Assembly: GCF_013315695.1 (NCBI RefSeq)
Contig: NZ_CP054353.1
From: Escherichia coli
GTDB lineage: Bacteria; Pseudomonadota; Gammaproteobacteria; Enterobacterales; Enterobacteriaceae
Direction: 5' to 3' (one strand)
DNA length: 64,000 nt
The notes beneath the pieces are model-generated. The model was given only the letters and a program-made list of their open reading frames with translations, was not told where the DNA came from and made no database searches. A program made the translations under genes and the position numbers. The stretch's first letter is position 1. The number at the start of each line of letters is the position of its first letter. This document shows, in pieces, positions 2,900-25,170 of the stretch.

Positions 2900-5722
2900 T
2901 TACAGCATCGGCTTGAGGAAGCGTGCCGTATGCGAAGCTTCGCACTCCGCGACGGTTTCTGGCGTACCGGAGACGAGGATCTCGCCGCCGCCACTGCCGC
3001 CTTCCGGTCCCAGGTCGACAATCCAGTCAGCGGTTTTGATCACGTCGAGATTGTGTTCAATCACCACAATGGTATTGCCCTGATCGCGCAGTTTATGCAG
3101 TACGTCGAGCAGTTGCTGAATATCGGCGAAGTGCAGACCGGTGGTCGGCTCGTCGAGAATATACAGTGTCTGCCCGGTGCCGCGTTTTGACAGCTCACGC
3201 GCCAGCTTCACGCGCTGGGCTTCACCGCCTGAAAGGGTGGTTGCGGACTGCCCCAGGCGAATGTACGTCAGGCCAACGTCCATCAACGTTTGCAGCTTAC
3301 GCGCCAGTGCAGGTACGGCATCAAAGAACTCACGCGCCTCTTCGATGGTCATATCCAGCACTTCGTGGATGGTTTTGCCTTTGTACTTAATTTCCAGCGT
3401 TTCACGGTTATAGCGTTTACCTTTACACTGGTCGCACGGTACGTAAATGTCCGGCAGGAAGTGCATCTCCACTTTGATCACGCCGTCGCCCTGACAGGCT
3501 TCGCAGCGTCCGCCACGGACGTTAAAGCTGAAACGTCCCGGCGTATAGCCGCGCGCACGGGATTCCGGTACGCCCGCAAACAGTTCGCGCACAGGCGTAA
3601 ACACGCCGGTATAGGTCGCTGGGTTAGAACGCGGAGTACGACCAATTGGGCTTTGGTCGATATCGATCACTTTATCGAAATGCTCCAGCCCCTGAATATC
3701 GCGATACGGTGCCGGTTCGGCGATGGTCGCACCATTCAACTGGCGTTGGGCAATCGGGAACAGTGTGTCGTTAATCAGTGTCGATTTACCGGAACCTGAA
3801 ACCCCTGTGATGCAGGTAAACAGACCGACTGGCAGCGTTAGCGTCACGTCTTTCAGGTTATTACCGCGTGCACCCGTCAGCTTCAGCACTTTTTCCGGAT
3901 TCGCCGGAACGCGTTTCTTCGGCACTTCAATCTTGCGTTTACCGCTCATGTACTGTCCGGTCAACGACTCCGGCACCGCCATAATCGCTTCCAGTGGACC
4001 TTCCGCGACCACTTCACCGCCGTGAACACCCGCACCAGGACCGATATCGATCACATGGTCAGCCGCGCGAATCGCGTCTTCGTCGTGCTCCACCACAATC
4101 ACGGTATTACCGAGATCGCGCAGATGGATAAGCGTACCCAACAGGCGCTCGTTATCGCGCTGGTGCAGGCCGATAGACGGCTCATCCAGCACGTACATAA
4201 CGCCAACCAGGCCCGCACCAATCTGGCTCGCCAGACGAATACGCTGGGCTTCACCGCCAGAAAGCGTTTCTGCCGAGCGGGAAAGCGTCAGGTAATTCAG
4301 GCCGACGTTAACGAGGAATTTCAAACGATCGCCGATCTCTTTAAGAATTTTTTCCGCAATCTTCGCCCGCTGACCTGCGAGTTTGAGATTGTTGAAGAAT
4401 TCCATCGCATGACCAATGCTCATGTCGGAAATGGCGGGCAGCGGCGTATTCTCGACATACACGTGGCGCGCTTCCCGACGCAGACGCGTCCCTTCGCAGC
4501 TGGCGCACGGGCGATTGCTGATGAACTTGGCTAATTCTTCGCGTACCGCGCTGGACTCCGTCTCTTTATAACGGCGCTCCATATTGTGCAGCACGCCTTC
4601 AAACGGATGACGACGAATGGAGGTATCGCCACGATCGTTCATGTATTTGAATTCAATGTTTTCTTTGCCAGAACCGTACAACACCACTTTATGCACGTTC
4701 GCGCTCAGGCTGCCCCACGGCGCTTCGACGTCGAACTTATAGTGATCTGCCAGCGATTTCAGCATCTGGAAATAATAGAAGTTGCGGCGATCCCAGCCAC
4801 GGATCGCACCGCCAGCCAGCGACAGTTCCGGATTCTGGATCACGCGGTCAGGATCGAAATATTGCTGTACGCCAAGGCCGTCGCAGGTCGGGCAGGCCCC
4901 CGCCGGGTTGTTAAACGAAAACAGTCGCGGCTCCAGCTCGCGCATACTGTAACCGCAAATTGGGCAGGCGAAGTTGGCGGAGAACAGCAGCTCTTCCGCT
5001 TTCGGGTCGTCCATATCCGCCACTACCGCGGTACCACCGGAAAGCTCTAGCGCGGTTTCAAACGACTCGGCCAGACGTTGGGTAAGATCGTCACGCACCT
5101 TGAAGCGATCAACCACCACTTCAATAGTGTGTTTCTTTTGCAGTTCCAGTTTCGGCGGATCGGAAAGATCGCAGACTTCGCCATCAATACGAGCACGGAT
5201 GTAACCCTGGCTTGCCAGGTTCTCCAGCGTTTTGGTGTGTTCGCCTTTGCGCTCTTTAATGATTGGCGCAAGCAGCATCAGACGCTTGCCTTCCGGCTGT
5301 GACAGCACGTTATCCACCATCTGGCTGACGGTTTGCGCCGCCAGCGGGACGTCGTGGTCCGGACAGCGCGGCTCGCCGACGCGGGCGAACAACAAACGCA
5401 AATAGTCGTGGATTTCGGTGATTGTCCCCACCGTAGAACGCGGGTTATGAGACGTTGATTTCTGCTCAATTGAGATGGCAGGAGAAAGCCCCTCAATATG
5501 ATCGACGTCCGGCTTTTCCATCAGTGACAGAAACTGCCGCGCGTAGGCGGAAAGGGATTCAACGTAACGGCGCTGCCCTTCGGCATATAAGGTGTCGAAA
5601 GCGAGCGAGGATTTGCCAGAACCCGAAAGCCCGGTCACGACAATGAGCTTGTCGCGGGGGATAACGAGGTTGATGTTTTTGAGATTATGGGTGCGGGCGC
5701 CCCGAACTTCGATCTTATCCAT
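2900..5722 (-). CDS. uvrA: Excinuclease ABC subunit A (940 aa)
   Basis: Two ABC ATPase modules (GLSGSGKSS and GVSGSGKST Walker A, LSGGE signatures) and zinc-finger Cys clusters ([25 protein letters not shown]); length 940 aa. Confidence 0.97.
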
Positions 5723-5807
5723 TCACCTTTCCCGGATTAAACGCTTTTTTGCCCGGTGGCATGGTGCTACCGGCGATCACAAACGGTTAATTATGACACA
5801 AATTGAC

Positions 5808-5823
5808 CTGAATGAATATACAG
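5808..5823. promoter_or_regulatory. LexA (SOS) box in the divergent uvrA-ssb control region
   Basis: Minus-strand reading CTGTATATTCATTCAG matches the CTGT-N8-ACAG operator; known to control uvrA and ssb. Confidence 0.7.
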
Positions 5824-5976
5824 TATTGGAATGCATTACCCGGAGTGTTGTGTAACAATGTCTGGCCAGGTTTGTTTCCCGGAACCGAGGTCACAACATA
5901 GTAAAAGCGCTATTGGTAATGGTACAATCGCGCGTTTACACTTATTCAGAACGATTTTTTTTCAGGAGACACGAAC

Positions 5977-6513
5977 ATGGCCAGCAGAGGCGTAAACAAG
6001 GTTATTCTCGTTGGTAATCTGGGTCAGGACCCGGAAGTACGCTACATGCCAAATGGTGGCGCAGTTGCCAACATTACGCTGGCTACTTCCGAATCCTGGC
6101 GTGACAAAGCGACCGGCGAGATGAAAGAGCAGACTGAATGGCACCGCGTTGTGCTGTTCGGCAAACTGGCAGAAGTAGCCAGCGAATATCTGCGTAAAGG
6201 TTCTCAGGTTTATATCGAAGGTCAGCTGCGTACCCGCAAATGGACCGATCAATCCGGTCAGGATCGCTACACCACAGAAGTCGTGGTGAACGTTGGCGGC
6301 ACCATGCAGATGCTGGGTGGTCGTCAGGGTGGTGGCGCTCCGGCAGGTGGCAATATCGGTGGTGGTCAGCCGCAGGGTGGTTGGGGTCAGCCTCAGCAGC
6401 CGCAGGGTGGCAATCAGTTCAGCGGCGGCGCGCAGTCTCGCCCGCAGCAGTCCGCTCCGGCAGCGCCGTCTAACGAGCCGCCGATGGACTTTGATGACGA
6501 TATTCCGTTCTAG
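5977..6513 (+). CDS. ssb: Single-stranded DNA-binding protein (178 aa)
   Basis: [32 protein letters not shown]... OB-fold N-terminus, Gly/Gln/Pro-rich linker, acidic tip DFDDDIPF. Confidence 0.97.
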
Positions 6514-6551
6514 AGTTAACTTGTGAGTTATTTGTAAAGAATCCATACGCA

Positions 6552-6580
6552 GGCCCCTGTTAATTCAGGGGTTTTTTGTT
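6552..6580 (+). terminator. Intrinsic terminator of ssb
   Basis: Hairpin caggcccctg-ttaattc-aggggttttttg. Confidence 0.7.
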
Positions 6581-6650
6581 TCTATCGTCGGAAAAAGTGT
6601 CTTGTATAAATTGGTGATTTTTCACATAAAGTGTACCTTGTAATTGTGTA

Positions 6651-7919
6651 ATGTTTATGGGGTGTGAGTGCATGGAAAAGAACTACAGAGTTACAACATT
6701 TGTCATGGATAGTGGCGAGCGCTATTGCATGGTAGTGGATCGTGCTTCTGGGCTTCCCATGTATTACCCCACTCTGTTTCTAACAACTCAAATCCGCAAT
6801 AGAGAGGATGCTTTTTCAACGATGTTGGCGGCGGCTAACAACCTGGTTATGTTGTTACGCTTTGTAGAGAGTCGCGACATTGACCTTGAGCAGCGGTTTT
6901 TGACCAAAGACTTCTTCAAGCCACATGAGCTGGATGATCTGCGAGATTTTGCTCAGTGCAAACAAAGAAAGGGGCCATTAACTGTGTCCTCTACCTCTTG
7001 GTTGGCCGATGCGATGACCGATATCGTTGATAACGGGACACAGCATTCCCGGCTAACAACGTTTGCCAACTATTTACACTGGTATGCGATGCATATCTTA
7101 AAGACGACAGAACTGGAAGTTGTCGAAAAGATCAATGCTATGGCGGCGCAGATAAAGACGCGCCGACCATCTAAAAAGCGCAGAAACCACGACTTACAAG
7201 ACAGGTCATTGAGTGATGTTCAATTGGACGCGCTATTTGAAGTCATCCAGCCTAGATCAGAGTTAAACCCTTTCTCAATAGATGTGCAGCGCCGCAATCG
7301 GCTGATGATCTTACTTCTGTTTTATCTTGGCATCCGAGGTGGTGAATTATTAAATATAAGAATACAGGACATAGATTTTAGCGCTAACAGGATCCGTATC
7401 GTTAGGAGAGCAGATGAACAAGCTGACTCTAGAACCAATGAGCCTAATGCTAAAACTAGAGAACGGCTCTTACCGTTGGCTGAATCCTTAGCTCAAGAAC
7501 TGCATAGTTATATCCTTCAAGATCGCCGGAAAGTCAGAAATGCGAAGAAAAATGACTATCTGTTTGTAACTTACAAGAGTGGACCAACTCTGGGAAATCC
7601 TATCTCCAAAGGGGGATATCATAAAATTTTTTCCGTAGTCAGGTCTATATCACCGCAATTGTATGCAGCGACAGGACATTCGCTCCGCCACACTTGGAAT
7701 CGCAAGTTTTCAGAAAGAATGGATGCCATGAATGAGCAAGTCAGCGAGGAACGCCAAGAGCAACTTCGTTCGTACTTAATGGGCTGGAGAGATGGCTCGG
7801 GAACCGCAGCGACTTACAACAAGCGTTTCATTCGGCAAAAAGGTTTTGAGGCCGCCTTGGCATTACAAGCAGGTAACGGCACTAGCTTGCCAGAGGACTT
7901 CAAGGATGACCATGAATAA
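6651..7919 (+). CDS. Tyrosine recombinase 1 of trio (integrase family, 422 aa; start may be the internal Met at 6672)
   Basis: Catalytic signature seen in translation: ...GIRGGELLNI... (Arg), HSLRHTW (His-x-x-Arg), LMGWRDGSGTAATYNKRF (Tyr nucleophile). Confidence 0.8.
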   Translation: MFMGCECMEKNYRVTTFVMDSGERYCMVVDRASGLPMYYPTLFLTTQIRNREDAFSTMLAAANNLVMLLRFVESRDIDLEQRFLTKDFFKPHELDDLRDFAQCKQRKGPLTVSSTSWLADAMTDIVDNGTQHSRLTTFANYLHWYAMHILKTTELEVVEKINAMAAQIKTRRPSKKRRNHDLQDRSLSDVQLDALFEVIQPRSELNPFSIDVQRRNRLMILLLFYLGIRGGELLNIRIQDIDFSANRIRIVRRADEQADSRTNEPNAKTRERLLPLAESLAQELHSYILQDRRKVRNAKKNDYLFVTYKSGPTLGNPISKGGYHKIFSVVRSISPQLYAATGHSLRHTWNRKFSERMDAMNEQVSEERQEQLRSYLMGWRDGSGTAATYNKRFIRQKGFEAALALQAGNGTSLPEDFKDDHE

Positions 7920-9444
7920 CCTCTTACTTGGGTTAGTACCAGAACGAATCCGTGCCAGGGCCAATGGCTACTCTTTTCTGTTGTATGACACATCGTGGAC
8001 ATTGGATAGAAATATCACTATTAATCTTGCTGATATTCACCATTACTTGTCAGATGGGACGCTAGATGGCTGCCTGCGTACACTGGCGTTTTATGCATCC
8101 AATCGTTCTTCTTCTCATACAAAAAATATTCTTGAACGGTTTCAGCACATGCTGCGTGAGACTGACGCGAGAGAAATTACTGATACGGTATTGATTAATT
8201 ATCGGTCGATGCTGTCGCCTGCAACAGAATGGTATCTAGCAACCATCCGTGGCTTTCTTCGATCCTGGCACGAACTGGGCTATCCCGGCATCAGTAAGGA
8301 GGTGAACCGCTTGCTAGATGGCTGGACGCTAAAGGGTAATCGTAAGGGGGATGCGGTTAAGCGCATGGATCCTCAAGAGGGGCCACTGACGGATAATGAG
8401 CTGACAGCGTTTAACGAGGGGGCTGTTCGGGCTTATGAAAAGAGCTTAATTACTATAGCTGAGTTGGCTATAGCACTTGGCACCAGTCATACAGGACGTC
8501 GTCCCATTCAGATCTCGCTGCTTCGTGTGGTCGATGTCCTTTGTGGTAAAAATGGAAAGGGAGAGCCCTTCTATGTGTTGAATGTGCCGCGAGCCAAGCA
8601 GCGCAGCAGCTCTTTCCGAATAAACTTCAAACCATTTGCAATATCACTGGAACTATGGGCAATCCTGAGTGCTCAGGCAAGAAATGCGATTGCGCAGGTT
8701 GAAAATCGTTTGGGGTTTGAATTGCAGGAAGATGACCGGCAGCAAATCCCTCTTTTTCCTGATCTTGATGTGTTAGATGCCGTCCAATCTCCTTATGAAT
8801 TCCGCCAACTGCATGCTACCGACAAACTCCACATTCCCGCCGCAGAGATAACCGACACCCTCCAATACATCGTAGAAAAGTCCGACATCCGGTCGGAACG
8901 TACCGGTGAGCTATTACATATCAATGCTCGTCGTTTTCGTTATACCACAGGCACACGAGCTGCCCGGGAAGGCTTTGGCGAGCTGGTGATTGCGGAACTG
9001 CTTGACCACGCGGACACCCAAAACGCAGGCGTTTACATCAAGAATATCCCCGAGCATGTGAAAAAGCTTGATGAGGCGGTTGGCTTCCAATTAGCACCAT
9101 ACGCTCAGGCCTTTGTCGGGGCACTTGTCGATTCAGAGAGAGACGCGCATCGAGGTAACGACCCTACCAGTCGTATTCGGACCGAAATGGGTCAGGGTGT
9201 TGGTACTTGTGGAGAACATGGCTTTTGTGGTGCCAATGTTCCTATTCCTTGCTACACCTGCATGCATTTCCAGCCTTGGCTGGACGGCCCACATGAAGAT
9301 GTCTATCAAGGACTGCTCAACGAACGTGAACGGGTGAAAGAGATAACTGGCGACATCCAGATTGCTGCCGTACTTGATCGCAGTATTATCGCGCTGGCAG
9401 ATGTGATCATGCGTTGTGCAAAACGTCGTGAAGAGCTTAGTTAA
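7906..9444 (+). CDS. Tyrosine recombinase 2 of trio (about 513 aa)
   Basis: C-terminal region with RRFRYTTGTRAAREG and LLDHADTQNAGVYI (R/H...Y pattern); ATG at 7906 or 7912 overlaps the upstream stop at 7917-7919. The ORF-track start at 7792 is rejected as an overlap artefact. Confidence 0.75.
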   Translation: MTMNNLLLGLVPERIRARANGYSFLLYDTSWTLDRNITINLADIHHYLSDGTLDGCLRTLAFYASNRSSSHTKNILERFQHMLRETDAREITDTVLINYRSMLSPATEWYLATIRGFLRSWHELGYPGISKEVNRLLDGWTLKGNRKGDAVKRMDPQEGPLTDNELTAFNEGAVRAYEKSLITIAELAIALGTSHTGRRPIQISLLRVVDVLCGKNGKGEPFYVLNVPRAKQRSSSFRINFKPFAISLELWAILSAQARNAIAQVENRLGFELQEDDRQQIPLFPDLDVLDAVQSPYEFRQLHATDKLHIPAAEITDTLQYIVEKSDIRSERTGELLHINARRFRYTTGTRAAREGFGELVIAELLDHADTQNAGVYIKNIPEHVKKLDEAVGFQLAPYAQAFVGALVDSERDAHRGNDPTSRIRTEMGQGVGTCGEHGFCGANVPIPCYTCMHFQPWLDGPHEDVYQGLLNERERVKEITGDIQIAAVLDRSIIALADVIMRCAKRREELS

Positions 9445-9460
9445 CAGGGAGCAATAACCA

Positions 9461-11494
9461 ATGGCTGAGATTTTCCTGTTTAAGCCAAAGGCTACGCTGA
9501 CAGCAGCAGAAAACCTTGAAGCATTCATATCCCAGTGCCGAGATCAATTGACTGTATTCGGCTCTGATCTCACTTGGGAAGATCCTGTTTGGCCAAACAT
9601 AACTGTATTTGCCAAGTTGGGCATTATTACGAGAAAACCCATACTGGAAGAGACGCAAGACCCTGCTTTCATTGATTTTGCCAAAGCCTATTTCCGTTAC
9701 CAGCAGGGGCATAGCCTCTCTAGGGCAAAGAATGAAAGTAAAGCCCTCCGTGCGGTTGAGGCGGCTTTGCTTCAAGTAAATGGAAACGCAAATATTGATG
9801 GCCTGTCGATTTCTGTGCTGGATGAAGCAGCTGAATTGGCAAAGCATTACTACTCCGATGGCTCCGCATATCATTGTGGCCGTGAGATTGAGCGGCTGGC
9901 TAAGTTTGTAGCTGAAAACCAGCTTGTATCAAGTGCTGTACAAAATTGGGTCAATCCAATTAAACGTGCAGAGGATAAGAACAAAACGAGCAGAAAGGCG
10001 AAGAAAAATAGGGAAGATAAACTTCCGAGTGATATTGCTCTTAATGCGTTGGCGGAAATTTTTGCCAACGACCCAATTCATGAGCGAGACATATTTACAA
10101 CATCGGTTTTTGCCATGTTGATGTCGGCACCTTCACGTATTACTGAGGTGTTAGCACTGCCTGTGGATTGCGAGGTTTTTGAAACGGATCGTGAAGGGAT
10201 AGAACGATATGGTTGGCGTTTTTTTGCGGGGAAAGGCTATGAGGGTGATATCAAATGGATACCCACCGTGATGGTCGGTATAGCTAAGACAGCCGTAGCT
10301 AGAGCTAGAGTGCTCTCTGAAAATGCACGACAACTGGCCAAGTGGATCGAGAAACACCCGAATAAGTTTTACCGCCATGCTAACTGTCCCAGTGTAGCCG
10401 ATGATGAGCCATTGACGATGAAGCAGGTTTGTATGGCGCTCGGTTTTGCACATTACTCTAAAAAGACGTGCAGGTCGTGTCTTGGTAATCGAGGTTTAGC
10501 TAAAGAGGATGGTGTACATACTCTAAATAGCCTGTGGCAGCACACAATGGCGCGTTTACCGGATGGCTTTCCGTGGTTTGATAAAGACAAGGGAATTAGG
10601 TACAGCAATGCCTTGTTTGTACTGAACGTAAATCAGTTCCACGGGAACAGAGGATGCATACCAGTTGAGTTACATAAGCCAACCAATAATTTCTTCAACA
10701 GTGATCTGACGCCTCGTCTGTCCTTGAAAGGAAAACATGCCAGTATCTTTGATCGCCATGGTTACCATGCTGTAAACGGAGAGCCGGTGAAATTAACCTC
10801 ACATCAGGCTCGACACCTGCTCAACACCATTATCCAGCGCGGTGGCCTGTCAAACTTGGAAATTGCCAAGTGGTCGGGGCGGGCAGATGTGAAACAGAAT
10901 CGAACTTACAACCACATGACTGAATACGAACTGGTTGGCATTGCTGAACGCCTTGATCCCACAACAGCGCTATTTGGGCCTGCTGGCGAGGTGGCAAAGC
11001 ATCTGCCCGTGACTATGCAGGAGTTCAATACCTTAGAGCATGCCGCAGTCCATGTGACGGAGTATGGCTACTGTGTGCATGATTACACCATGAGTCCTTG
11101 TGAGAAATTCCGAGATTGCGTCAATTGTACCGAACAGGTTTGCATCAAAGGCGATGATGCTGAAAAGTTGGATCGCATTAAGATACGTCTGGAGAAATTA
11201 GAGCGACTGTTTTTTCTTGCTGACGCAGCAGTGGAAAGTGGTGAGATAGGAACTGATCGCTGGTATCAGTACCACAAGAAAACTGTTACCCGGCTTCGTG
11301 AACTAGTGGCTATTTTAGAGAATCCAGACATTGAAAATGGTGTCCAGATTAAGCTCCGGGGCAATGATTTCAGCCAGCTTCGCCGTGTTGTCGCAAAGAC
11401 GTCTATTGTGGCCATCGAGCAAAAAGGCAAAGAAAGTGAAGAAGCTGTGATGTTAGATGATTTGACAACTTTGTTAGGAGGTGGCCTTGGCTAA
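9461..11494 (+). CDS. Tyrosine recombinase 3 of trio (677 aa)
   Basis: LTSHQARHLLNT (H-x-x-R-H) and WSGRADVKQNRTYNHM (Tyr) motifs; RBS-like cagggag 8 nt upstream of ATG. Confidence 0.75.
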   Translation: MAEIFLFKPKATLTAAENLEAFISQCRDQLTVFGSDLTWEDPVWPNITVFAKLGIITRKPILEETQDPAFIDFAKAYFRYQQGHSLSRAKNESKALRAVEAALLQVNGNANIDGLSISVLDEAAELAKHYYSDGSAYHCGREIERLAKFVAENQLVSSAVQNWVNPIKRAEDKNKTSRKAKKNREDKLPSDIALNALAEIFANDPIHERDIFTTSVFAMLMSAPSRITEVLALPVDCEVFETDREGIERYGWRFFAGKGYEGDIKWIPTVMVGIAKTAVARARVLSENARQLAKWIEKHPNKFYRHANCPSVADDEPLTMKQVCMALGFAHYSKKTCRSCLGNRGLAKEDGVHTLNSLWQHTMARLPDGFPWFDKDKGIRYSNALFVLNVNQFHGNRGCIPVELHKPTNNFFNSDLTPRLSLKGKHASIFDRHGYHAVNGEPVKLTSHQARHLLNTIIQRGGLSNLEIAKWSGRADVKQNRTYNHMTEYELVGIAERLDPTTALFGPAGEVAKHLPVTMQEFNTLEHAAVHVTEYGYCVHDYTMSPCEKFRDCVNCTEQVCIKGDDAEKLDRIKIRLEKLERLFFLADAAVESGEIGTDRWYQYHKKTVTRLRELVAILENPDIENGVQIKLRGNDFSQLRRVVAKTSIVAIEQKGKESEEAVMLDDLTTLLGGGLG

Positions 11495-11906
11495 GCATCT
11501 GGACAATAGAGACATTAACGCCATCGTAAATCTAATTCGAGGATGGAAGGAACCAAAACTGTCCTGGTCAGCAATTTGTGAGGCGGCAGAACCATTGGTC
11601 GGAAAGTTGCCGTCAAGACAGTCCCTTAATGCACATGAGGCAATAGTGACTGCCTATCAAACAAAGAAAGAGGCGCTTAAAGGCCGTGGCCCCAAAAATC
11701 CGCGTCCAGCTAGTTTGAACATTGCAGCCGCGAGGATTGTGAATCTTGAAAGCGAAATCGAAGAGCTTAAGGAAGAGAACCGGAGGTACAAACAACAGTT
11801 TGTGATCTGGCAATACAATGCATACAAATATGGAATGACAGAACATCAACTTAATGCGCAGCTGACAAAGATTGACCGTGAGCGCTCTGATGGAGAAAGA
11901 AGATAG
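11481..11906 (+). CDS. Small protein (about 140 aa) coupled to recombinase 3; possible ginD-like accessory factor
   Basis: ORF overlaps the 3' end of recombinase 3 (GTG 11481 or TTG 11487 just after aggagg); C-terminal half has coiled-coil character (LESEIEELKEENRRYKQQ). Function not recognisable. Confidence 0.5.
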   Translation: MALAKHLDNRDINAIVNLIRGWKEPKLSWSAICEAAEPLVGKLPSRQSLNAHEAIVTAYQTKKEALKGRGPKNPRPASLNIAAARIVNLESEIEELKEENRRYKQQFVIWQYNAYKYGMTEHQLNAQLTKIDRERSDGERR

Positions 11907-11981
11907 TTGCTGAGTACGATATCGAGGGTACATTTCTCTGTGTAGGGGTAGTTATTTACAAAAAAATAGGAGAATAATTAA

Positions 11982-14900
11982 ATGGTCAAACCAAACTGGG
12001 ATAACTTTAAAGCTAAATTTAGTGAGAATCCTCAAGGTAATTTTGAGTGGTTTTGCTACTTGTTGTTCTGTCAAGAATTCAAAATGCCCGCAGGTATATT
12101 TAGATATAAGAATCAATCTGGTATCGAAACTAATCCAATAACCAAAGATAATGAAATTATCGGTTGGCAATCTAAATTCTATGACACAAAATTGTCGGAT
12201 AACAAAGCTGATCTTATAGAAATGATTGAGAAAAGCAAAAAGGCTTATCCAGGATTAAGTAAAATCATTTTCTATACTAATCAAGAGTGGGGGCAGGGGA
12301 GAAAGTCCCATGAACCTGAAGGCGATAAGAACGCTGATAATTATTTGGAAACTGTCGGAAATAGTAACGATCCCAAAATAAAAATTGAAGTTGATCAGAA
12401 AGCATATGAGTCGGGTATCGAAATAGTATGGAGAGTTGCTAGTTTTTTTGAATCACCGTTTGTAATAGTTGAGAATGAAAAGATTGCTAAACATTTCTTC
12501 TCCCTTAATGAAAGCATCTTTGATTTATTAGAAGAAAAGCGCAAGCACACAGAAAATGTTTTATATGAAATTCAAACCAATATAGAGTTCAAAGACAGAA
12601 GTATTGAAATTGACAGACGACATTGTATAGAACTTCTACATGAGAATCTAGTTCAGAAAAAAATTGTCATCGTCAGCGGAGAAGGTGGGGTTGGAAAAAC
12701 AGCAGTTATCAAAAAAATTTATGAAGCAGAAAAACAATACACTCCTTTCTATGTCTTTAAGGCTAGCGAGTTTAAAAAGGACAGTATTAATGAGCTATTC
12801 GGTGCGCATGGCTTAGACGATTTCTCTAATGCTCATCAAGACGAATTACGTAAAGTCATAGTCGTAGATTCTGCTGAAAAGCTTTTAGAACTGACCAATA
12901 TCGATCCTTTTAAAGAATTCCTGACTGTTTTAATAAAGGATAAATGGCAGGTTGTTTTCACAACCCGTAACAACTACTTGGCAGATCTGAACTATGCTTT
13001 CATAGATATTTATAATATAACTCCTGGAAACTTAGTAATAAAGAACCTTGAACGCGGCGAGCTAATAGAGTTATCTGATAACAATGGATTTAGCCTTCCT
13101 CAAGATGTTCGATTATTAGAACTAATCAAAAATCCATTTTATCTAAGTGAATATTTGAGGTTCTATACCGGTGAAAGCATCGATTATGTGAGCTTCAAAG
13201 AAAAGCTTTGGAATAAGATTATTGTCAAAAATAAACCTTCTCGGGAGCAGTGTTTCTTAGCGACTGCTTTTCAGCGGGCTAGTGAGGGCCAATTTTTTGT
13301 CTCCCCGGCATGTGATACTGGAATTTTAGATGAGTTAGTTAAAGACGGAATTGTCGGCTATGAAGCTGCTGGTTACTTCATTACACATGATATATACGAG
13401 GAATGGGCATTAGAAAAGAAAATTTCTGTCGATTATATCCGTAAAGCGAACAATAACGAGTTCTTCGAAAAAATAGGAGAATCACTTCCTGTTCGCCGTA
13501 GTTTTCGGAATTGGATATCTGAACGATTGCTTTTAGATGACCAGTCCATAAAGCCTTTTATCGCAGAAATAGTCTGTGGAGAAGGAATATCAAATTTTTG
13601 GAAAGACGAGTTATGGGTAGCTGTCCTTCTTTCCGATAATTCAAGCATATTTTTTAATTACTTTAAAAGATATTTACTTAGTAGTGACCAGAATCTATTA
13701 AAAAGACTTACTTTCTTATTGAGGCTTGCTTGCAAGGACGTTGATTACGATCTGCTTAAACAGTTAGGTGTAAGTAATTCAGATCTGCTTTCCATTAAAT
13801 ATGTTCTTACTAAGCCTAAGGGAACTGGTTGGCAGAGTGTGATCCAATTTATCTATGAAAATTTAGATGAAATAGGGATCAGAAATATTAATTTTATACT
13901 TCCTGTGATTCAGGAGTGGAATCAAAGAAACAAAGTGGGTGAAACGACTCGATTATCTAGTTTGATAGCCCTAAAATATTATCAATGGACTGTAGATGAG
14001 GATGTCTATTTATCCGGAAGGGATAATGAGAAAAATATTCTGCATACGATTCTTCATGGGGCGGCCATGATTAAACCTGAAATGGAAGAGGTTTTAGTTA
14101 AGGTTCTTAAAAATAGGTGGAACGAGCACGGTACCCCATATTTCGACCTTATGACCTTAATCCTTACTGACTTAGATTCATATCCGGTTTGGGCATCTCT
14201 CCCGGAATATGTTCTACAATTGGCAGATCTGTTCTGGTATCGGCCACTTAAAGAAACAGGCGAACGTTATCACAGTATGGATATTGAAGATGAGTTCGGT
14301 CTATTTAGGTCTCATCACGACTATTATCCAGAAAGTCCATATCAGACTCCTATATATTGGTTACTACAATCACAGTTCAAAAAAACAATAGACTTTATTC
14401 TTGATTTTACGAACAAGACAACGATATGTTTTGCCCACTCCCATTTTGCTAAAAACGAAATTGAAGAAGTCGATGTCTTTATTGAAGAAGGAAAGTTTAT
14501 AAAGCAATATATATGCAATCGTCTGTGGTGCTCATATCGAGGAACACAGGTCTCTACCTACTTACTTTCATCAATTCATATGGCATTGGAAAAATTTTTT
14601 CTTGAGAATTTTAAAAATGCAGACTCGAAAGTGTTGGAAAGTTGGCTTCTTTTCTTGTTAAGAAATACCAAGTCAGCTTCTATTTCTGCAGTAGTTACGA
14701 GTATTGTACTTGCATTCCCTGAGAAGACATTCAATGTAGCTAAAGTACTATTCCAAACAAAGGATTTCTTCCGTTTTGATATGAATCGAATGGTTCTAGA
14801 CAGAACACATAAAAGTTCATTAATCTCCCTCAGGGATGGCTTTGGCGGTACAGATTACAGAAACTCTTTGCACGAAGAAGATAGAATTAAAGCTTGCGAT

Positions 14901-16745
14901 GATGTGCATAGAAATACTTATCTTGAAAATCTTGCCTTGCATTATCAAATTTTCAGGAGTGAAAATGTAACGGAGAAAGATGTCATTGAAAGGCAACAAG
15001 TGCTCTGGGGTATTTTCGATAAATACTATAATCAGCTTCCAGATGAAGCTCAAGAAACTGAAGCCGATAAGACGTGGAGGCTCTGCTTGGCAAGAATGGA
15101 TCGGCGAAAGATGAAAATAACTACCAAGGAGAAAGATGAAGGGATTGAGATATCATTCAATCCTGAGATTGACCCTAAACTAAAGCAATATAGTGAGGAA
15201 GCAATAAAGAAAAACTCCGAGCATATGAAGTATGTAACGCTGAAACTATGGGCAAGCTATAAAAGAGAAAAGGATGAACGTTATAAGAATTATGGAATGT
15301 ATGAGGACAATCCGCAAATTGCTTTACAAGAGACCAAAGAAATAATAAAAAAGCTTAATGAGGAAGGGGGTGAAGATTTCAGACTATTAAATGGTAATAT
15401 ACCAGCAGACGTTTGTTCTGTATTACTGTTAGATTACTTTAATCAGTTGAATAATGAAGAGAGAGAATATTGTAAAGATATTGTTCTAGCATATTCTCAA
15501 CTTCCGTTGAAGGAAGGCTATAATTATCAGGTACAAGATGGGACAACCTCGGCAATTTCAGCCTTACCCGTGATTTATCATAATTATCCAATGGAAAGGG
15601 AGACTATAAAAACAATATTACTTTTGACACTGTTTAATGACCACTCTATTGGAATGGCAGGTGGGCGCTACTCAGTATTTCCTAGTATGGTGATTCATAA
15701 ATTATGGCTAGACTATTTTGATGATATGCAGTCTCTATTGTTTGGTTTTTTGATTTTAAAGCCAAAGTATGTAATTCTTTCAAGAAAAATCATTCATGAA
15801 AGTTATCGTCAAGTAGACTATGACATTAAAAAAATAAATATTAATAAGGTGTTTTTAAATAACTATAAGCATTGCATATCAAATGTCATCGATAATAAAA
15901 TATCTATAGATGATTTGGGAAGTATAGATATAGTTGATCTACATATTTTGAACACAGCTTTCCAATTAATTCCAGTTGATACTGTTAATATTGAACATAA
16001 GCAATTGGTTTCCTTAATTGTTAAAAGATTTTCTACAAGCCTATTGTCAAGTGTTCGAGAAGATAGAGTTGATTACGCTCTTCGGCAGTCTTTCTTGGAA
16101 AGATTTGCCTACTTTACGCTTCATGCGCCCGTGAGCGATATTCCCGATTATATAAAACCTTTTCTTGATGGTTTCAACGGTTCAGAGCCTATTTCAGAGT
16201 TATTTAAAAAATTTATTCTCGTCGAAGATAGATTAAATACTTACGCCAAATTTTGGAAGGTTTGGGATTTGTTTTTTGATAAAGTGGTTACTTTGTGCAA
16301 GGATGGAGATAGGTATTGGTATGTAGATAAAATTATAAAAAGTTACCTTTTTGCTGAATCTCCATGGAAAGAAAACTCTAATGGTTGGCACACATTTAAA
16401 GATAGCAATAGTCAATTCTTTTGCGATGTATCTAGGACTATGGGCCATTGCCCTTCAACTTTATATTCTCTTGCCAAATCTTTGAATAACATTGCCAGTT
16501 GCTATCTTAATCAAGGTATAACCTGGCTTTCAGAAATGTTGTCGGTTAATAAAAAGCTATGGGAAAAGAAATTGGAAAATGATACTGTTTATTTTTTAGA
16601 ATGTTTGGTTAGGCGGTATATTAACACTGAGCGTGAGCGAATTAGACGAACCAAACAGTTGAAAGAAGAGGTCTTAGTAATATTGGATTTTTTGGTAGAG
16701 AAAGGATCTGTTGTTGGTTATATGTCACGGGAAAATATTCTGTGA
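11982..16745 (+). CDS. Large STAND-type P-loop NTPase (1587 aa): N-terminal unknown domain (about 1-220), NTPase core (about 225-330), about 1250-aa helical C-terminal region; candidate anti-phage (Avs-like) protein
   Basis: Strong RBS (aggag, 9-nt spacer). Walker A GEGGVGKT (aa 233-240), Walker B VIVVDSAE (aa 292-299), TTR motif in QVVFTTRN (aa 323-330) typical of STAND NTPases. Very AT-rich codon usage; no transmembrane or secretion signals noticed. Confidence 0.8.
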   Translation: MVKPNWDNFKAKFSENPQGNFEWFCYLLFCQEFKMPAGIFRYKNQSGIETNPITKDNEIIGWQSKFYDTKLSDNKADLIEMIEKSKKAYPGLSKIIFYTNQEWGQGRKSHEPEGDKNADNYLETVGNSNDPKIKIEVDQKAYESGIEIVWRVASFFESPFVIVENEKIAKHFFSLNESIFDLLEEKRKHTENVLYEIQTNIEFKDRSIEIDRRHCIELLHENLVQKKIVIVSGEGGVGKTAVIKKIYEAEKQYTPFYVFKASEFKKDSINELFGAHGLDDFSNAHQDELRKVIVVDSAEKLLELTNIDPFKEFLTVLIKDKWQVVFTTRNNYLADLNYAFIDIYNITPGNLVIKNLERGELIELSDNNGFSLPQDVRLLELIKNPFYLSEYLRFYTGESIDYVSFKEKLWNKIIVKNKPSREQCFLATAFQRASEGQFFVSPACDTGILDELVKDGIVGYEAAGYFITHDIYEEWALEKKISVDYIRKANNNEFFEKIGESLPVRRSFRNWISERLLLDDQSIKPFIAEIVCGEGISNFWKDELWVAVLLSDNSSIFFNYFKRYLLSSDQNLLKRLTFLLRLACKDVDYDLLKQLGVSNSDLLSIKYVLTKPKGTGWQSVIQFIYENLDEIGIRNINFILPVIQEWNQRNKVGETTRLSSLIALKYYQWTVDEDVYLSGRDNEKNILHTILHGAAMIKPEMEEVLVKVLKNRWNEHGTPYFDLMTLILTDLDSYPVWASLPEYVLQLADLFWYRPLKETGERYHSMDIEDEFGLFRSHHDYYPESPYQTPIYWLLQSQFKKTIDFILDFTNKTTICFAHSHFAKNEIEEVDVFIEEGKFIKQYICNRLWCSYRGTQVSTYLLSSIHMALEKFFLENFKNADSKVLESWLLFLLRNTKSASISAVVTSIVLAFPEKTFNVAKVLFQTKDFFRFDMNRMVLDRTHKSSLISLRDGFGGTDYRNSLHEEDRIKACDDVHRNTYLENLALHYQIFRSENVTEKDVIERQQVLWGIFDKYYNQLPDEAQETEADKTWRLCLARMDRRKMKITTKEKDEGIEISFNPEIDPKLKQYSEEAIKKNSEHMKYVTLKLWASYKREKDERYKNYGMYEDNPQIALQETKEIIKKLNEEGGEDFRLLNGNIPADVCSVLLLDYFNQLNNEEREYCKDIVLAYSQLPLKEGYNYQVQDGTTSAISALPVIYHNYPMERETIKTILLLTLFNDHSIGMAGGRYSVFPSMVIHKLWLDYFDDMQSLLFGFLILKPKYVILSRKIIHESYRQVDYDIKKININKVFLNNYKHCISNVIDNKISIDDLGSIDIVDLHILNTAFQLIPVDTVNIEHKQLVSLIVKRFSTSLLSSVREDRVDYALRQSFLERFAYFTLHAPVSDIPDYIKPFLDGFNGSEPISELFKKFILVEDRLNTYAKFWKVWDLFFDKVVTLCKDGDRYWYVDKIIKSYLFAESPWKENSNGWHTFKDSNSQFFCDVSRTMGHCPSTLYSLAKSLNNIASCYLNQGITWLSEMLSVNKKLWEKKLENDTVYFLECLVRRYINTERERIRRTKQLKEEVLVILDFLVEKGSVVGYMSRENIL

Positions 16746-16790
16746 TGTAGTTGAAAATAATAATTTTAATGAGAGCTTTTCCAATTTAGG

Positions 16791-16815
16791 CTCCAGGGAT
16801 TGGAGCCTTTTTATT
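16791..16815 (+). terminator. Intrinsic terminator after the large NTPase gene
   Basis: Hairpin ggctccaggg-a-ttggagcc followed by tttttatt. Confidence 0.6.
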
Positions 16816-16840
16816 ATCGAAAAGATTAATATCTTATAAG

Positions 16841-17059
16841 TCAATCAGTAAAACGCAGCAAAGCTCGTTGCTCTTGAATGTTCACTCCGTGATAAATTCT
16901 TTGATTACCACATAAATAACAAGAACAAGCACAAGGGGTGCAGTAAATTTTCCCTACAACTTTTTCAGTTTTAGCCAACGCAATTCGATATGTTTTTCTC
17001 TTAGATTTTAACCGAGATATATGATGACGACGCCATGCCCGATTTCTAACCATTTCCAT
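16841..17059 (-). CDS. Small basic Cys-rich hypothetical protein (72 aa)
   Basis: ORF with GGAG-type RBS; Arg/Lys-rich N-terminus and a CTPCACSCYLCG cysteine cluster (possible zinc ribbon). No family recognised. Confidence 0.3.
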   Translation of the reverse strand: MEMVRNRAWRRHHISRLKSKRKTYRIALAKTEKVVGKIYCTPCACSCYLCGNQRIYHGVNIQEQRALLRFTD

Positions 17060-17283
17060 TCACTCCAATTTTCTACCGCGGTGTTATACCGCGCCCGTAT
17101 CAATCTTTGGAGTTCGATATCGATCTGACCTTTCATGAATACCTCGGAATTTATCAATAAAGTGAGTGCTATATCATAGCTTATGGGATGAAAGTTTGAT
17201 ATTTAGCACTTTTCAGCTTTAGGTAAAGCTGTCCTCAATAAAGCTAATTTCTTGTTTATTAATGGAATTTCTATGTGGAAGTG

Positions 17284-18105
17284 TTAGAAATCCTGTTTTA
17301 CTTTATCCATCGTTAAAACTTTACTTATTATATAAGGATCATAATTTCTTATACTCATAAGGCAATTTATCAAATTGGAAACGTGGCTATCATCAGGTAT
17401 AAGTATATATTTAATATCATCGAAAGAAAAACCAATGCCAAATTCAGAGAATTTTTTACTTAAGACGGCCTTCTGGTTAGGTTCCACCACTCGCTCTAAA
17501 TTTAGGCTAGGCCATAAATCGCCAACAAACGGATGCGGTACATATCTCCATTCTTTTTCGTCAGCGTAGATATAATTCTCAATGGTTTTTTCGTTCGTCC
17601 TTTCTAATTTCCCTTTATAATTTTTCATATAGCGTAATAAATTATAAAGGTCAGCGTACTCTTCTTTAAGGCTTTCAAAATACTTACGCTCTTTATTATC
17701 AAGGATATGCCTTTTCGACCATAGCGGAATTAACGCATCCTTTAGTTTTCTAATTCTTTTATTATACTTTGAAAATAATTCACTGCCTTGATTCATGTAT
17801 AGAACGGGATGGAGATCATTTTTCTCAGCCCATTCTTTTGTTAACCCAAATCCAAATTCACCATATTTTCCACTATGATCTTTAATCTGAGAAAGCTTGA
17901 TGTCACAGAATGAAACCATTGGTACTGCGAAATTTCTTCTTCCTTTTACTCCGACTATGCGTTCACGGGCAAGAAATGGTTTAAAATAGAGTTCTGTTAA
18001 AATGCTATAGAATGCCTCTTCATTTTTAGTAAAGTGAAACAACGTTGTTGGATGTAAACTATTAACTGCTTGTATAACTGTTTCTTGGTTTTCTATAGCA
18101 CTCAT
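17284..18105 (-). CDS. AbiGi-like abortive-infection family protein (273 aa)
   Basis: N-terminal LFHFTKNEEAFYSILTE... resembles, by recall, the FHFT-type N-terminus of AbiGi-family proteins; AT-rich; convergent with the NTPase gene. Confidence 0.55.
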   Translation of the reverse strand: MSAIENQETVIQAVNSLHPTTLFHFTKNEEAFYSILTELYFKPFLARERIVGVKGRRNFAVPMVSFCDIKLSQIKDHSGKYGEFGFGLTKEWAEKNDLHPVLYMNQGSELFSKYNKRIRKLKDALIPLWSKRHILDNKERKYFESLKEEYADLYNLLRYMKNYKGKLERTNEKTIENYIYADEKEWRYVPHPFVGDLWPSLNLERVVEPNQKAVLSKKFSEFGIGFSFDDIKYILIPDDSHVSNLINCLMSIRNYDPYIISKVLTMDKVKQDF

Positions 18106-18483
18106 ATATTAACTGTTCCATAGTGTAAAACCTGACTTAGCAAAGGTTATCATACTAGTCTTTGTACTGTAAGCACACTTGGTTTAATTCCACGCACTTT
18201 TTGAGATTTCCGGTTTTTTGATCTCTTACCAAAATCTATGCCAGATTGAATCAAAGGTCCGAGCTGGGTCACCAAAAAAAGTAAAATTATGCACTTTGAT
18301 AGATTATATTTTAACTAAATTCTTTACAGTTAAATCATTTCTTATGCCTTAGTTTCTGATAAAAAAGGTTTTTTTTCACGATTTATAAGTATCAGGTTAT
18401 GTGAACCGTTCTGATTTGTCGTTAAAACAATAGGTTATATTGTTTTAAGGTGGATGATTAAAGCATCTGCCAGCCATAAAAAA

Positions 18484-18506
18484 GAAGCCTCCGTTTTGGA
18501 GGCTTC
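18484..18506 (-). terminator. Terminator downstream of yjcB (backbone)
   Basis: Hairpin gaagcctccg-ttt-tggaggcttc with an A-run on the plus strand (U-run on the minus strand), immediately after the yjcB stop. Confidence 0.5.
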
Positions 18507-18512
18507 TACATA

Positions 18513-18794
18513 TCAAGTCAAAATCATTGGCCATTGTGGCGGTGTCTGATTCATCTCTTCTATCATCACCGACTCGATGTTGTGCCAGATGGCGGTGATA
18601 TCCGCCATTGTGATGCCAAGCAACCCCATTGCGAACCAGCAGGCAGAAACCACGCCCAGACCGCTGCTGATCACTGCAAGCCCGACATAATCAGACCGAC
18701 GAAAACGGATGTTGAGTGTGCTGGCCAGAAACATCATTACGGCACTAAGAAGTTGCCAGCGAAGAAGAACCACGCCAGTGGTGAGGGTAGCCAT
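18513..18794 (-). CDS. yjcB: Small inner-membrane protein YjcB (93 aa)
   Basis: Hydrophobic ORF MATLTTGVVLLRWQLL...; position after ssb as in K-12. The ORF track extends to 18893, but a 93-aa product starting at the internal Met is expected. Confidence 0.8.
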   Translation of the reverse strand: MATLTTGVVLLRWQLLSAVMMFLASTLNIRFRRSDYVGLAVISSGLGVVSACWFAMGLLGITMADITAIWHNIESVMIEEMNQTPPQWPMILT

Positions 18795-19223
18795 CAAACA
18801 ATTCCTCTGAAAAGAGCCGATGCCTCGGACAGCGCGGCGTTGTTCACGGGAGGCGTGATACAATCTGGCTATCGCGGGGCTTGCAGAACACAAAAAAGAA
18901 ACACTCTGTTTGTTTCATTAATTTTGTGAACTATATCACAATTGATTGTTTGTTAGCCAGATTAGGCCGTGACTTTTATTGCCGTACAGATTATGTGTTT
19001 TTTCAGCGGCATTAAGGGTATATCTTCCCACCGCCTCTGCATTCCTGTAGGAAATTAGTTTTGAATATCAATGAATTATTTTTATTCAGGTGACGATTAA
19101 AAAGGTATCAATTTCAAATCAGGCAAAAGTGCTATTTATACCGTAAGATTTATCTAAAGACGTCGATAACCAGGGTTCTCGCCTTGCAATGACCGGGTAT
19201 AAACAAGCAGGAAATTGATAGCA

Positions 19224-20810
19224 ATGAGTCATCGTGCACGACACCAATTACTGGCGTTGCCGGGCATTATCTTTTTAGTTCTCTTTCCCATCATTCTGTC
19301 GCTATGGATTGCCTTCTTTTGGGCAAAATCAGAAGTGAATAATCAGCTCCGAACCTTTGCTCAGCTGGCGTTGGATAAATCTGAGCTGGTCATTCGTCAG
19401 GCAGATTTAGTGAGCGATGCAGCTGAACGCTATCAGGGGCAAGTTTGCACCCCAGCCCATCAAAAGCGAATGTTGAATATTATTCGTGGCTATCTTTATA
19501 TTAATGAATTGATCTATGCCCGTGATAACCATTTTTTATGCTCATCGCTGATAGCGCCTGTAAACGGCTATACGATTGCACCGGCCGATTATAAGCGTGA
19601 ACCTAACGTTTCTATCTATTATTACCGCGATACGCCTTTTTTCTCTGGCTATAAAATGACCTATATGCAGCGGGGAAATTATGTGGCGGTCATCAACCCT
19701 CTCTTCTGGAGTGAAGTGATGTCTGATGATCCGACATTGCAATGGGGTGTATATGATACGGTAACGAAAACCTTTTTCTCGTTAAGCAACGAGGCCTCGG
19801 CAGCAACGTTTTCTCCACTGATTCATTTGAAGGATTTAACTGTACAAAGAAATGGCTATTTATATGCGACAGTTTATTCGACAAAACGCCCAATTGCGGC
19901 CATTGTTGCGACTTCATATCAACGTCTTATAGCGCATTTTTATAATCATCTTATTTTTGCGTTACCCGCCGGTATTTTGGGGAGTCTTGTTCTGCTATTA
20001 CTCTGGCTACGTATTCGACAAAACTATTTGTCTCCCAAACGCAAATTGCAACGCGCCCTCGAAAAACATCAACTTTGCCTTTATTACCAGCCAATAATCA
20101 ATATCAAAACAGAAAAATGTATCGGGGCTGAAGCATTGTTACGTTGGCCTGGTGAGCAGGGGCAAGTAATGAATCCGGCAGAGTTTATTCCGCTGGCAGA
20201 AAAGGAGGGGATGATCGGACAGGTAACTGATTATGTTATTGATAATGTCTTCCGCGATCTGGGCGCATACCTGGCAACACATGCCGATCGCTATGTTTCT
20301 ATTAACCTGTCGGCCTCCGATTTTCATACGTCACGGTTGATAGCGCGAACCAATCAGAAAACAGAGCAATACGCGGTGCGTCCACAGCAAATTAAATTTG
20401 AAGTGACTGAACATGCATTTCTTGATGTCGACAAAATGACACCAATTATTCTGGCTTTCCGCCAGGCTGGTTACGAAGTGGCAATTGATGATTTTGGTAT
20501 TGGCTACTCTAACTTGCATAACCTTAAATCATTGAATGTCGATATTTTGAAAATCGATAAATCGTTTGTTGAGACGCTGACCACCCATAAAACCAGTCAT
20601 TTGATTGCGGAACACATCATCGAGCTGGCGCACAGTCTGGGGTTAAAAACGATCGCTGAAGGCGTCGAAACTGAGGAACAGGTTAACTGGCTGCGCAAAC
20701 GCGGCGTGCGCTATTGCCAGGGATGGTTCTTTGCGAAGGCGATGCCGCCGCAGGTGTTTATGCAATGGATGGAGCAATTACCCGCGCGGGAGTTAACGCG
20801 CGGGCAATAA
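19224..20810 (+). CDS. pdeC: Cyclic-di-GMP phosphodiesterase (N-terminal membrane/periplasmic sensor domain plus C-terminal EAL domain)
   Basis: EAL-domain hallmarks ([31 protein letters not shown]) seen in translation; two TM segments flank a periplasmic domain. Confidence 0.9.
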
Positions 20811-20812
20811 AA

Positions 20813-21136
20813 CTACAGGCGGTGGCGATAATCGCTTGGAGTGCGATCAAACTGCCGACGGAAAACGCGGGAGAAGGTCTGCTGCGAGACATAACCCAGG
20901 TCCATTGCGATATCAAAAATCGGACGCTCGGTGGTGCGCAACTCAACGGCGGCCAGTAACAGGCGGCGTTGGCGAATGTAATCACCAAGTGTCTGATGCG
21001 TCACCGTGCGGAACATCCGCTGTAAGTACCACTTTGAATAGCCTGATTTTTTTGCGACGACATCAATGTTAAGCGGCTGGTCAATATGCTCGTCAATCCA
21101 TGCGATAAGATCCTGAATAATTTTCTGATGGGACAT
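20813..21136 (-). CDS. soxS: AraC-family superoxide response regulator SoxS (107 aa)
   Basis: MSHQKIIQDLIAWIDEHIDQPLNIDVVAKKSGYSKWYLQRMFR...; divergent from soxR. Confidence 0.95.
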   Translation of the reverse strand: MSHQKIIQDLIAWIDEHIDQPLNIDVVAKKSGYSKWYLQRMFRTVTHQTLGDYIRQRRLLLAAVELRTTERPIFDIAMDLGYVSQQTFSRVFRRQFDRTPSDYRHRL

Positions 21137-21192
21137 AAATCTGCCTCTTTTCAGTGTTCAGTTCGTTAATTCATCTGTTGGGGAGTATAATT

Positions 21193-21210
21193 CCTCAAGT
21201 TAACTTGAGG
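21193..21210. promoter_or_regulatory. SoxR operator in the soxS promoter spacer
   Basis: Perfect palindrome CCTCAAGTTAACTTGAGG seen directly; the known SoxR binding site. Confidence 0.75.
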
Positions 21211-21221
21211 TAAAGCGATTT

Positions 21222-21686
21222 ATGGAAAAGAAATTACCCCGCATTAAAGCGCTGCTAACCCCCGGCGAAGTGGCGAAACGCAGCGGTGTGGCGGTATCGG
21301 CGCTGCATTTCTATGAAAGCAAAGGGTTGATTAGCAGTATCCGTAATAGTGGCAATCAGCGGCGATATAAACGTGATGTGTTGCGATATGTCGCAATCAT
21401 CAAAATTGCTCAGCGTATTGGCATTCCGCTGGCGACCATTCGTGAAGCATTTGGCGTGTTGCCCGAAGGGCATACATTAAGTGCGAAAGAGTGGAAACAG
21501 CTTTCGTCCCAATGGCGAGAAGAGTTGGATCGGCGCATTCATACCTTAGTGGCGCTGCGTGACGAACTGGACGGATGTATTGGTTGTGGCTGCCTTTCGC
21601 GCAGTGATTGCCCATTGCGTAACCCGGGCGACCGCTTAGGAGAAGAAGGCACAGGCGCACGCTTGCTGGAAGATGAACAAAACTAA
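21222..21686 (+). CDS. soxR: MerR-family redox sensor SoxR (154 aa)
   Basis: MerR HTH at the N-terminus and the C-terminal [12 protein letters not shown] [2Fe-2S] cluster motif. Confidence 0.95.
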
Positions 21687-21830
21687 AGCGCCACAAGGGC
21701 GCTTTAGTTTGTTTTCCGGTCTTTGTCTTTCTCTCTATCCCGCTGGTACACAGGAGGGTTTCCCCCGACGTCAACACACCTCATTCGAGCACGTGGTGGA
21801 GGTTCCGGTTGGTGTTGATGCTTTAATTGT
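21687..21830 (-). ncRNA. ryjA: Candidate small RNA RyjA (convergent with the soxR 3' end); coordinates approximate
   Basis: From recall of the K-12 map only (sRNA between soxR and the ghxP gene); the soxR terminator hairpin aaagcgccacaagggcgcttt is present. Not verifiable by eye. Confidence 0.3.
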
Positions 21831-22231
21831 ATGTTACCGGCGTTTCTTCGCCAGTGTAAAAGTACACTTTTTAGCCGCAATATTTTTGTCATCTCAGACG
21901 ATTTTTTATCGCAATCCTGAACGGTATACGGTTCGATAACGCTGCAATCTTGCGCATCGACGATAACGTTTGCGCATCAATTGCCTGGTTTTTCATCGTC
22001 AAGACAATAAAAGAGAAAAAAGCAGCAAACTTCGGTTGAAAAAGCCGCTATGATCGCCGGATAATCGTTTGCTTTTTTTACCACCCGTTTTGTATGCGCG
22101 GAGCTAAACGTTTGCTTTTTTGCGACGCACCAATTTGTCGCAAACCTGGAGCAGGAAGATAACGTTTCGCTGGCAGGGGATTGTCCGCCACGCATCTTGA
22201 CGAAAATTAAACTCTCAGGGGATGTTTTCTT

Positions 22232-23581: not shown

Positions 23582-23605
23582 TCTTACATAGGATTCTGAA
23601 AACGG

Positions 23606-23618
23606 GTGGCAATGGCTG
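23606..23618. repeat. IS4 target-site duplication, left copy (gtggcaatggctg)
   Basis: Identical 13-mer directly abuts both IS4 ends. Confidence 0.8.
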
Positions 23619-25044: not shown

Positions 25045-25057
25045 GTGGCAATGGCTG
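25045..25057. repeat. IS4 target-site duplication, right copy (gtggcaatggctg)
   Basis: Identical to 23606-23618. Confidence 0.8.
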
Positions 25058-25170
25058 CCCGTTTTTATTTTCTCCGCACATTGTGTGAGCTTTTGCGATA
25101 TTCTGAAAAAATGAGAATTCAGGCATAACGCCTTTCTCAGATCATAAAAAACATCGCAAACAGGGAACGC

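Follow-up and report, generated by a model that had tools for sequence, protein, structure and literature searches.

The nearest known counterpart of the operator treated here is the uvrA-ssb SOS box of E. coli K-12, for which PMC9505508 cites Brandsma et al. (1983 and 1985) and Fernandez de Henestrosa et al. (2000) and gives a heterology index (HI) of 6.98. Binding of LexA to the K-12 sequence comes from published work cited in the same paper, which also places the box over the -35 element of uvrA and states that, of three ssb promoters, LexA controls only the most distal one (PMC9505508). Salmonella enterica, likened here by its published description, has a divergent uvrA-ssb pair with one shared box of HI 6.99, and its ssb is classed with genes that have LexA-independent basal expression (PMC8072944). 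In Vibrio and Aeromonas, a high-scoring box of the gammaproteobacterial type lies upstream of uvrA.

We analysed a window of E. coli DNA, meaning the whole stretch of 64,000 nucleotides from which all coordinates below are counted, and found the same 20-mer as in K-12 with the same flanking genes, orientation, and distances. The operator shows no difference from that of K-12; what differs is the downstream side, where an island of 11.9 kb sits at the stop codon of ssb and provides the gene with a new 3' flank. A box upstream of uvrA is common to this locus and to Vibrio and Aeromonas but, unlike here, the box in those genera is not shared with ssb.

The operator and its flanking genes

The operator and the two genes that it separates are as follows.

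2900-5722, minus strand: uvrA, excinuclease ABC subunit A, 940 aa (open reading frame; NCBIfam equivalogs NF001503, 1628 bits, and TIGR00630)
5806-5825, minus strand: LexA operator (SOS box), TACTGTATATTCATTCAGGT on the minus strand and ACCTGAATGAATATACAGTA on the plus strand
5977-6513, plus strand: ssb, 178 aa (open reading frame; NCBIfam NF006533, enterobacterial SSB subfamily, 360 bits)

The RefSeq annotation of identical DNA names these genes uvrA and ssb1, and SSB has the same protein sequence as in the O157 comparison strain. The divergent gap between the genes covers 5723-5976 (254 bp). The box lies 83 nt from the uvrA start codon; on the other side, 151 nt separate its end, and 171 nt its start, from the ssb ATG. 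An Rfam scan of the spacer returned no RNA family.

The core of the box, CTG-N10-CAG, occupies 5808-5823 and reads CTGAATGAATATACAG on the plus strand; its reverse complement, CTGTATATTCATTCAG, is the minus-strand sequence that the earlier note had given, correctly, for these positions. When the surrounding 20 bp (5806-5825) were set against the consensus TACTG(TA)5CAGTA, both triplets, CTG and CAG, were present. The ssb-proximal half-site (5816-5825, ATATACAGTA) matches the consensus perfectly, and all 5 mismatches to the perfect palindrome fall in the uvrA-proximal half. When up to 3 mismatches were allowed, the perfect palindrome TACTGTATATATATACAGTA gave no match because the actual box has 5, which is a matter of threshold and not counter-evidence.

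Scores come from a symmetrised position weight matrix trained on 26 LexA boxes of E. coli, the uvrA/ssb box being left out. The training boxes are reportedly those listed by Lewis (1994) and by Fernandez de Henestrosa (2000), as given in the literature and not in a downloaded table. In this leave-one-out matrix the uvrA/ssb box scored 20.4 bits, and the training sites ranged from 13.4 to 27.2 bits with a median of 20.5. The runner-up anywhere in the 64-kb window reached 10.7 bits. Maxima from 200 simulated 64-kb sequences averaged 11.0 +/- 2.5 bits (largest, 18.65), and none of the 12.8 million null positions equalled the score of the box. No further LexA box was found in the 254-bp spacer by the same matrix, the second-best score there being -1.9 bits. 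These values bear out the description of a single good SOS box in the divergent region, for which a score under threshold had been named as the decisive objection. The Berg-von Hippel HI from our own matrix was 6.72, near the value of 6.98 published for this box (PMC9505508).

The bare pattern CTG-N10-CAG occurs 26 times in the window, compared to 13.6 +/- 3.8 expected from dinucleotide shuffles, none of which gave 26; such shuffles do not keep the frequencies of the codons CTG and CAG. The remaining matches in the window score at most 10.7 bits each on the LexA matrix. The excess probably reflects codon usage (CTG for Leu, CAG for Gln) and not additional LexA sites, and the bare count is uninformative on whether the box is real.

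Within the species, the only difference between this spacer and the one in K-12 MG1655 is the length of the T-run at 5955-5962, upstream of the ribosome-binding site of ssb (T8 here, T7 in K-12), in agreement with the earlier description of the arrangement as a known one. The spacer is 100% identical to the one in the island-free O157:H7 strain PV15-279. Of 5426 complete E. coli genomes, 5425 contain the spacer, 5410 of them with at least 99% identity, and the 20-mer was unchanged even in the most divergent strain, whose spacer is 91% identical. One mismatch within 5791-5840 was seen in 981 of the 5425 records; the two that were inspected lie outside the box, at 5805 and 5835. The first, G5805A in strain AH21I008, changes the -35 element of a candidate distal ssb promoter (described below) from TTGACC to TTAACC. 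The second, A5835C in strain D5, is beside the box.

The segment 5806-5825 is almost certainly the canonical E. coli uvrA/ssb SOS box, that is, an imperfect 20-bp palindrome for a LexA dimer that serves as operator of uvrA and of the distal ssb promoter. In this strain the box is intact, ordinary, and already known.

Promoter candidates and conservation across species

A strict sigma-70 scan of 5600-6700 returned no promoter. Candidates were, therefore, taken from a relaxed scan for hexamers and extended -10 elements and cross-checked against conservation, and their assignments are inferred.

5790-5798, minus strand: candidate extended -10 of the uvrA promoter, TGTCATAAT on the minus strand (relaxed scan), within the conserved block 5781-5802
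5803-5832, plus strand: candidate distal ssb promoter (P1-like), TTGACC at 5803-5808, 18-nt spacer, TGGAAT at 5827-5832 (relaxed scan)
5793-5822, plus strand: alternative distal ssb candidate, ATGACA at 5793-5798, 18-nt spacer, TATACA at 5817-5822 (relaxed scan)
5851-5859, plus strand: candidate middle ssb promoter, extended -10 TGTAACAAT, outside the box and weakly conserved
5920-5928, plus strand: candidate proximal ssb promoter, extended -10 TGGTACAAT, about 95 nt past the box and strongly conserved

At normal spacing from the candidate -10, the -35 of uvrA would fall at 5811-5820, wholly within the LexA box. The box also fills the spacer of the candidate distal ssb promoter (TTGACC/TGGAAT). 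The three promoter-like elements on the ssb strand are consistent with the three published ssb promoters, and the proximal one is presumed to be a LexA-independent housekeeping promoter. Judging from these hexamers, LexA could occlude only the distal ssb candidate, the middle and proximal ones being outside the box.

For comparison across species we took one genome per GTDB species and used SSB as the query, which gave 80 loci, mostly from Enterobacterales. In 71 of the 80, uvrA was divergently upstream of ssb, and in 66 of those it was within 600 bp. A box of at least 13.4 bits was present in 65 of the 66 species with adjacent divergent genes. The median distance from the box to the ATG was 83 nt for uvrA and 146 nt for ssb; the distance to ssb was the looser of the two, spanning 114-467 nt. 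Nine ssb copies with no adjoining uvrA provided a natural negative control: the best scores in the 300 nt upstream of them lay between -4.6 and 4.9 bits.

The 65 adjacent pairs and 5 separated pairs made 70 species with a box, among which 31 distinct box sequences were counted. Citrobacter and similar close relatives differ from E. coli by one base. The CTG and CAG triplets were invariant in 69-70 of the 70 species, and variation was confined to low-information positions of the LexA motif. When 67 distinct spacers were aligned, conservation over 20 nt was highest at exactly 5806-5825, with a mean identity of 0.88 compared to 0.51 elsewhere in the spacer. Next came 5781-5802, followed by the ribosome-binding regions and the proximal element at 5920-5928. 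Within Enterobacterales, the TTG of the -35 and the -10 of the distal ssb candidate were moderately conserved, well below the box or the proximal promoter.

Two species stood apart. Zophobihabitans entericus (L082) has the sole adjacent uvrA-ssb pair with no box (best score, 5.3 bits), and the stink-bug symbiont Pantoea sp. Nvir (L017) has CTC in place of CTG, the one exception to the invariant triplets, in a box of 15.0 bits. Both changes may represent decay of SOS regulation in host-associated lineages.

Control of uvrA and ssb by the box

The earlier note had called the operator shared. Physically it is; functionally it is lopsided toward uvrA. LexA dependence of expression is known from published data on identical DNA. 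By RNA-seq, uvrA was induced 3.9-fold after AZT with a lexA-dependent change of 4.4-fold, and the corresponding values for ssb were 1.5-fold and 1.0-fold (PMC11228462). Several older studies, as reviewed in PMC9505508, saw no induction of ssb.

The most serious rival as to physiological relevance is that the box is in practice an operator of uvrA only, its proximity to ssb being an accident of gene adjacency in Enterobacterales with no meaningful effect of LexA on ssb. The absence of lexA dependence of ssb in the RNA-seq data agrees with this, as do the tighter distance from box to uvrA and the weak conservation of the distal ssb candidate beside a strongly conserved proximal element. So does the arrangement in Vibrio (L061, L076, L079) and Aeromonas (L071, L073), where a distance of 1.2-2.2 kb, with other uvrA-strand open reading frames in it, separates uvrA from ssb. 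In these five loci uvrA has a box of 18.5-24.2 bits at a distance of 52-145 nt, and no site within 300 nt of ssb scores above 3.4 bits. This supports the reading that, where uvrA and ssb separate, the box follows uvrA, and it suggests that LexA control of ssb is secondary. However, RT-qPCR showed LexA-dependent induction of ssb by UV and gamma rays, and overexpression under constitutive SOS (PMC9505508); the study of Salmonella, which noted the same shared uvrA/ssb box, lists ssb as upregulated 9.6-fold (PMC8072944); and, on the ssb strand, a near-consensus -35 (TTGACC) directly adjoins the box. On balance, we regard an operator without any meaningful role at ssb as rather unlikely, and prefer an operator of uvrA and of the distal ssb promoter.

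A second rival is that the block is conserved mainly for another regulator, such as ArcA, or for promoter elements alone, with its likeness to a LexA site being secondary. An ArcA site is indeed shown in the spacer in Figure 1 of PMC9505508, and the box overlaps promoter elements of both strands that are themselves liable to conservation. However, what is conserved is the LexA pattern (invariant CTG and CAG, an AT-rich centre, and variation at low-information positions), the -35-like hexamers fall short of the box in both quality and conservation, and the box linked to uvrA is retained in Vibrio and Aeromonas with no ssb promoter there. Another regulator's site was rejected as the primary explanation on the strength of this LexA-type conservation and the retention of the box by uvrA in those two genera, and we consider it very improbable. 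That a chance CTG-N10-CAG palindrome with no regulatory role is at hand has a negligible probability: the bare pattern is common in the window, but the full 20-mer, at a score that no null position equalled, is kept in nearly all species with the adjacent pair as the most conserved part of the spacer and is identical to the experimentally characterised K-12 site (PMC9505508), so that the score and the conservation across species effectively refute it.

For the preferred reading, LexA at both uvrA and the distal ssb promoter, the textbook SOS mechanism is the most probable one. A LexA dimer on the box would cover the -35 and the upstream part of the spacer of the uvrA promoter and hinder RNA polymerase, presumably by steric occlusion. 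RecA on single-stranded DNA would trigger self-cleavage of LexA, and uvrA would be derepressed approximately 4-fold. On the ssb side, LexA would block only the most distal of three promoters; the two proximal ones, outside the box, would give high LexA-independent expression, to which SOS would add a small increment. A site of moderate affinity (5 mismatches, HI of about 7) would suit genes that need substantial basal expression. Substantial basal expression of uvrA and ssb, and a small SOS increment for ssb, would then be expected because of this moderate affinity together with the two LexA-independent ssb promoters. A search of the literature gave no usable ChIP data for LexA at uvrA and ssb.

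The island at the ssb stop codon

By blastn against the island-free strain, 11,901 bp are inserted between window positions 6511 and 18406. The island starts 686 bp past the box, and the spacer, as noted above, matches that of the island-free O157:H7 strain throughout; the earlier statement that the island leaves the box undisturbed thus holds. Its features are listed below.

6505-6511, plus strand: left junction, 7-bp direct repeat CCGTTCT, overlapping the final codons of ssb together with the first stop-codon base
6672-7919, plus strand: ginA-like tyrosine recombinase (PF00589, 2e-15), 159 nt downstream of ssb
7906-9444: second integrase-like protein (PF00589 weak at 0.007, below the Pfam cut-off)
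9461-11494: 677-aa protein with no Pfam or PADLOC match, a putative GinC counterpart by position and size alone
11487-11906: 139-aa protein with no Pfam or PADLOC match, a putative GinD counterpart by position and size alone
11982-16745, plus strand: Avs4, full-length (PADLOC, 2361 bits)
17284-18105, minus strand: AbiGi-like protein (Pfam, 1e-24)
18406-18412: right copy of the CCGTTCT repeat (blastn and junction sequences)

The island-free junction reads ...CCG TTC TGA TTTGTC; the left end in the window reads ...CCG TTC TAG AGTTAAC, and the right end reads GTGAA CCGTTCT GATTTGTC. The island thereby changes the ssb stop codon from TGA to TAG and leaves the SSB protein unchanged. A terminator-like hairpin carried by the island follows at 6551-6574 (-14 kcal/mol, then a T-run). 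No AbiGii partner is annotated in RefSeq beside the AbiGi-like gene.

Elements termed GInts carry a ginABCD module that encodes two catalytic tyrosine recombinases, a third protein (GinC) with the recombinase fold but lacking the catalytic residues, and a small fourth protein. The four co-directional genes at the left end of the island fit GinA-D in order and sizes (PMC5385486, PMC10214605). GInts insert preferentially at the end of ssb, with an attL that overlaps the gene end and leaves the product unaltered (PMC5385486), and they are found in 7.5% of Escherichia replicons (PMC10214605). As for site-specific insertion of a GInt, the junction here is at the ssb stop codon, SSB is unchanged, and a 7-bp repeat flanks the insert. 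Judged by its sequence, the island appears to be a GInt-like element that carries Avs4 defence and targets the ssb stop codon, which matches published behaviour. Most of the region 6500-26500 was present in 347 of 5426 complete E. coli genomes.

GinA-like genes, 27-57% identical to the one in the window, were also found approximately 130-190 nt after ssb in five other species: L050, L070 (Erwinia mallotivora), L077 (Gilliamella), L076 (Vibrio), and L019 (Pantoea stewartii). In one of these five loci, the ssb copy does not adjoin uvrA. Integration has, therefore, recurred at the 3' end of ssb. The overlap of the target with the codons for the conserved C-terminal tip of SSB (..DDDIPF) may explain why the site is common to unrelated elements.

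We also considered whether ssb transcripts, including those from the distal promoter under LexA control, read through the hairpin into the recombinase operon and so couple excision or transfer of the island to DNA damage. Such SOS read-through is quite improbable because a good hairpin terminator intervenes and the weight-matrix scan of the window found no LexA box upstream of the ginA-like gene. If true, read-through could contribute to the preference that unrelated GInts show for the 3' end of ssb.

Three further features were recorded elsewhere in the window. The Hfq-binding sRNA sraL (21679-21819, minus strand; 153 bits) adjoins soxR, and a bacterial SECIS element lies at 42014-42068 (minus strand; 87 bits); both passed the Rfam gathering threshold and are apparently ordinary E. 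coli features. An IS4-family transposase pseudogene with an internal stop lies between ghxP and yjcE (approximately 23632-24978, minus strand), as in the RefSeq annotation of the identical strain MSB1_4I, and is missing from the O157 comparison strain.

Taken together, these data confirm that this strain retains an intact classic SOS operator, unaltered by the adjacent mobile island. The comparison across species adds a small nuance, in that, within Enterobacterales, the box surpasses every other element of the uvrA-ssb spacer in conservation, and outside that order it follows uvrA and not ssb. Of more interest than the operator is the island itself, which, on the likeness set out above, would be a clean example of an Avs4 defence island on a GInt-like element.
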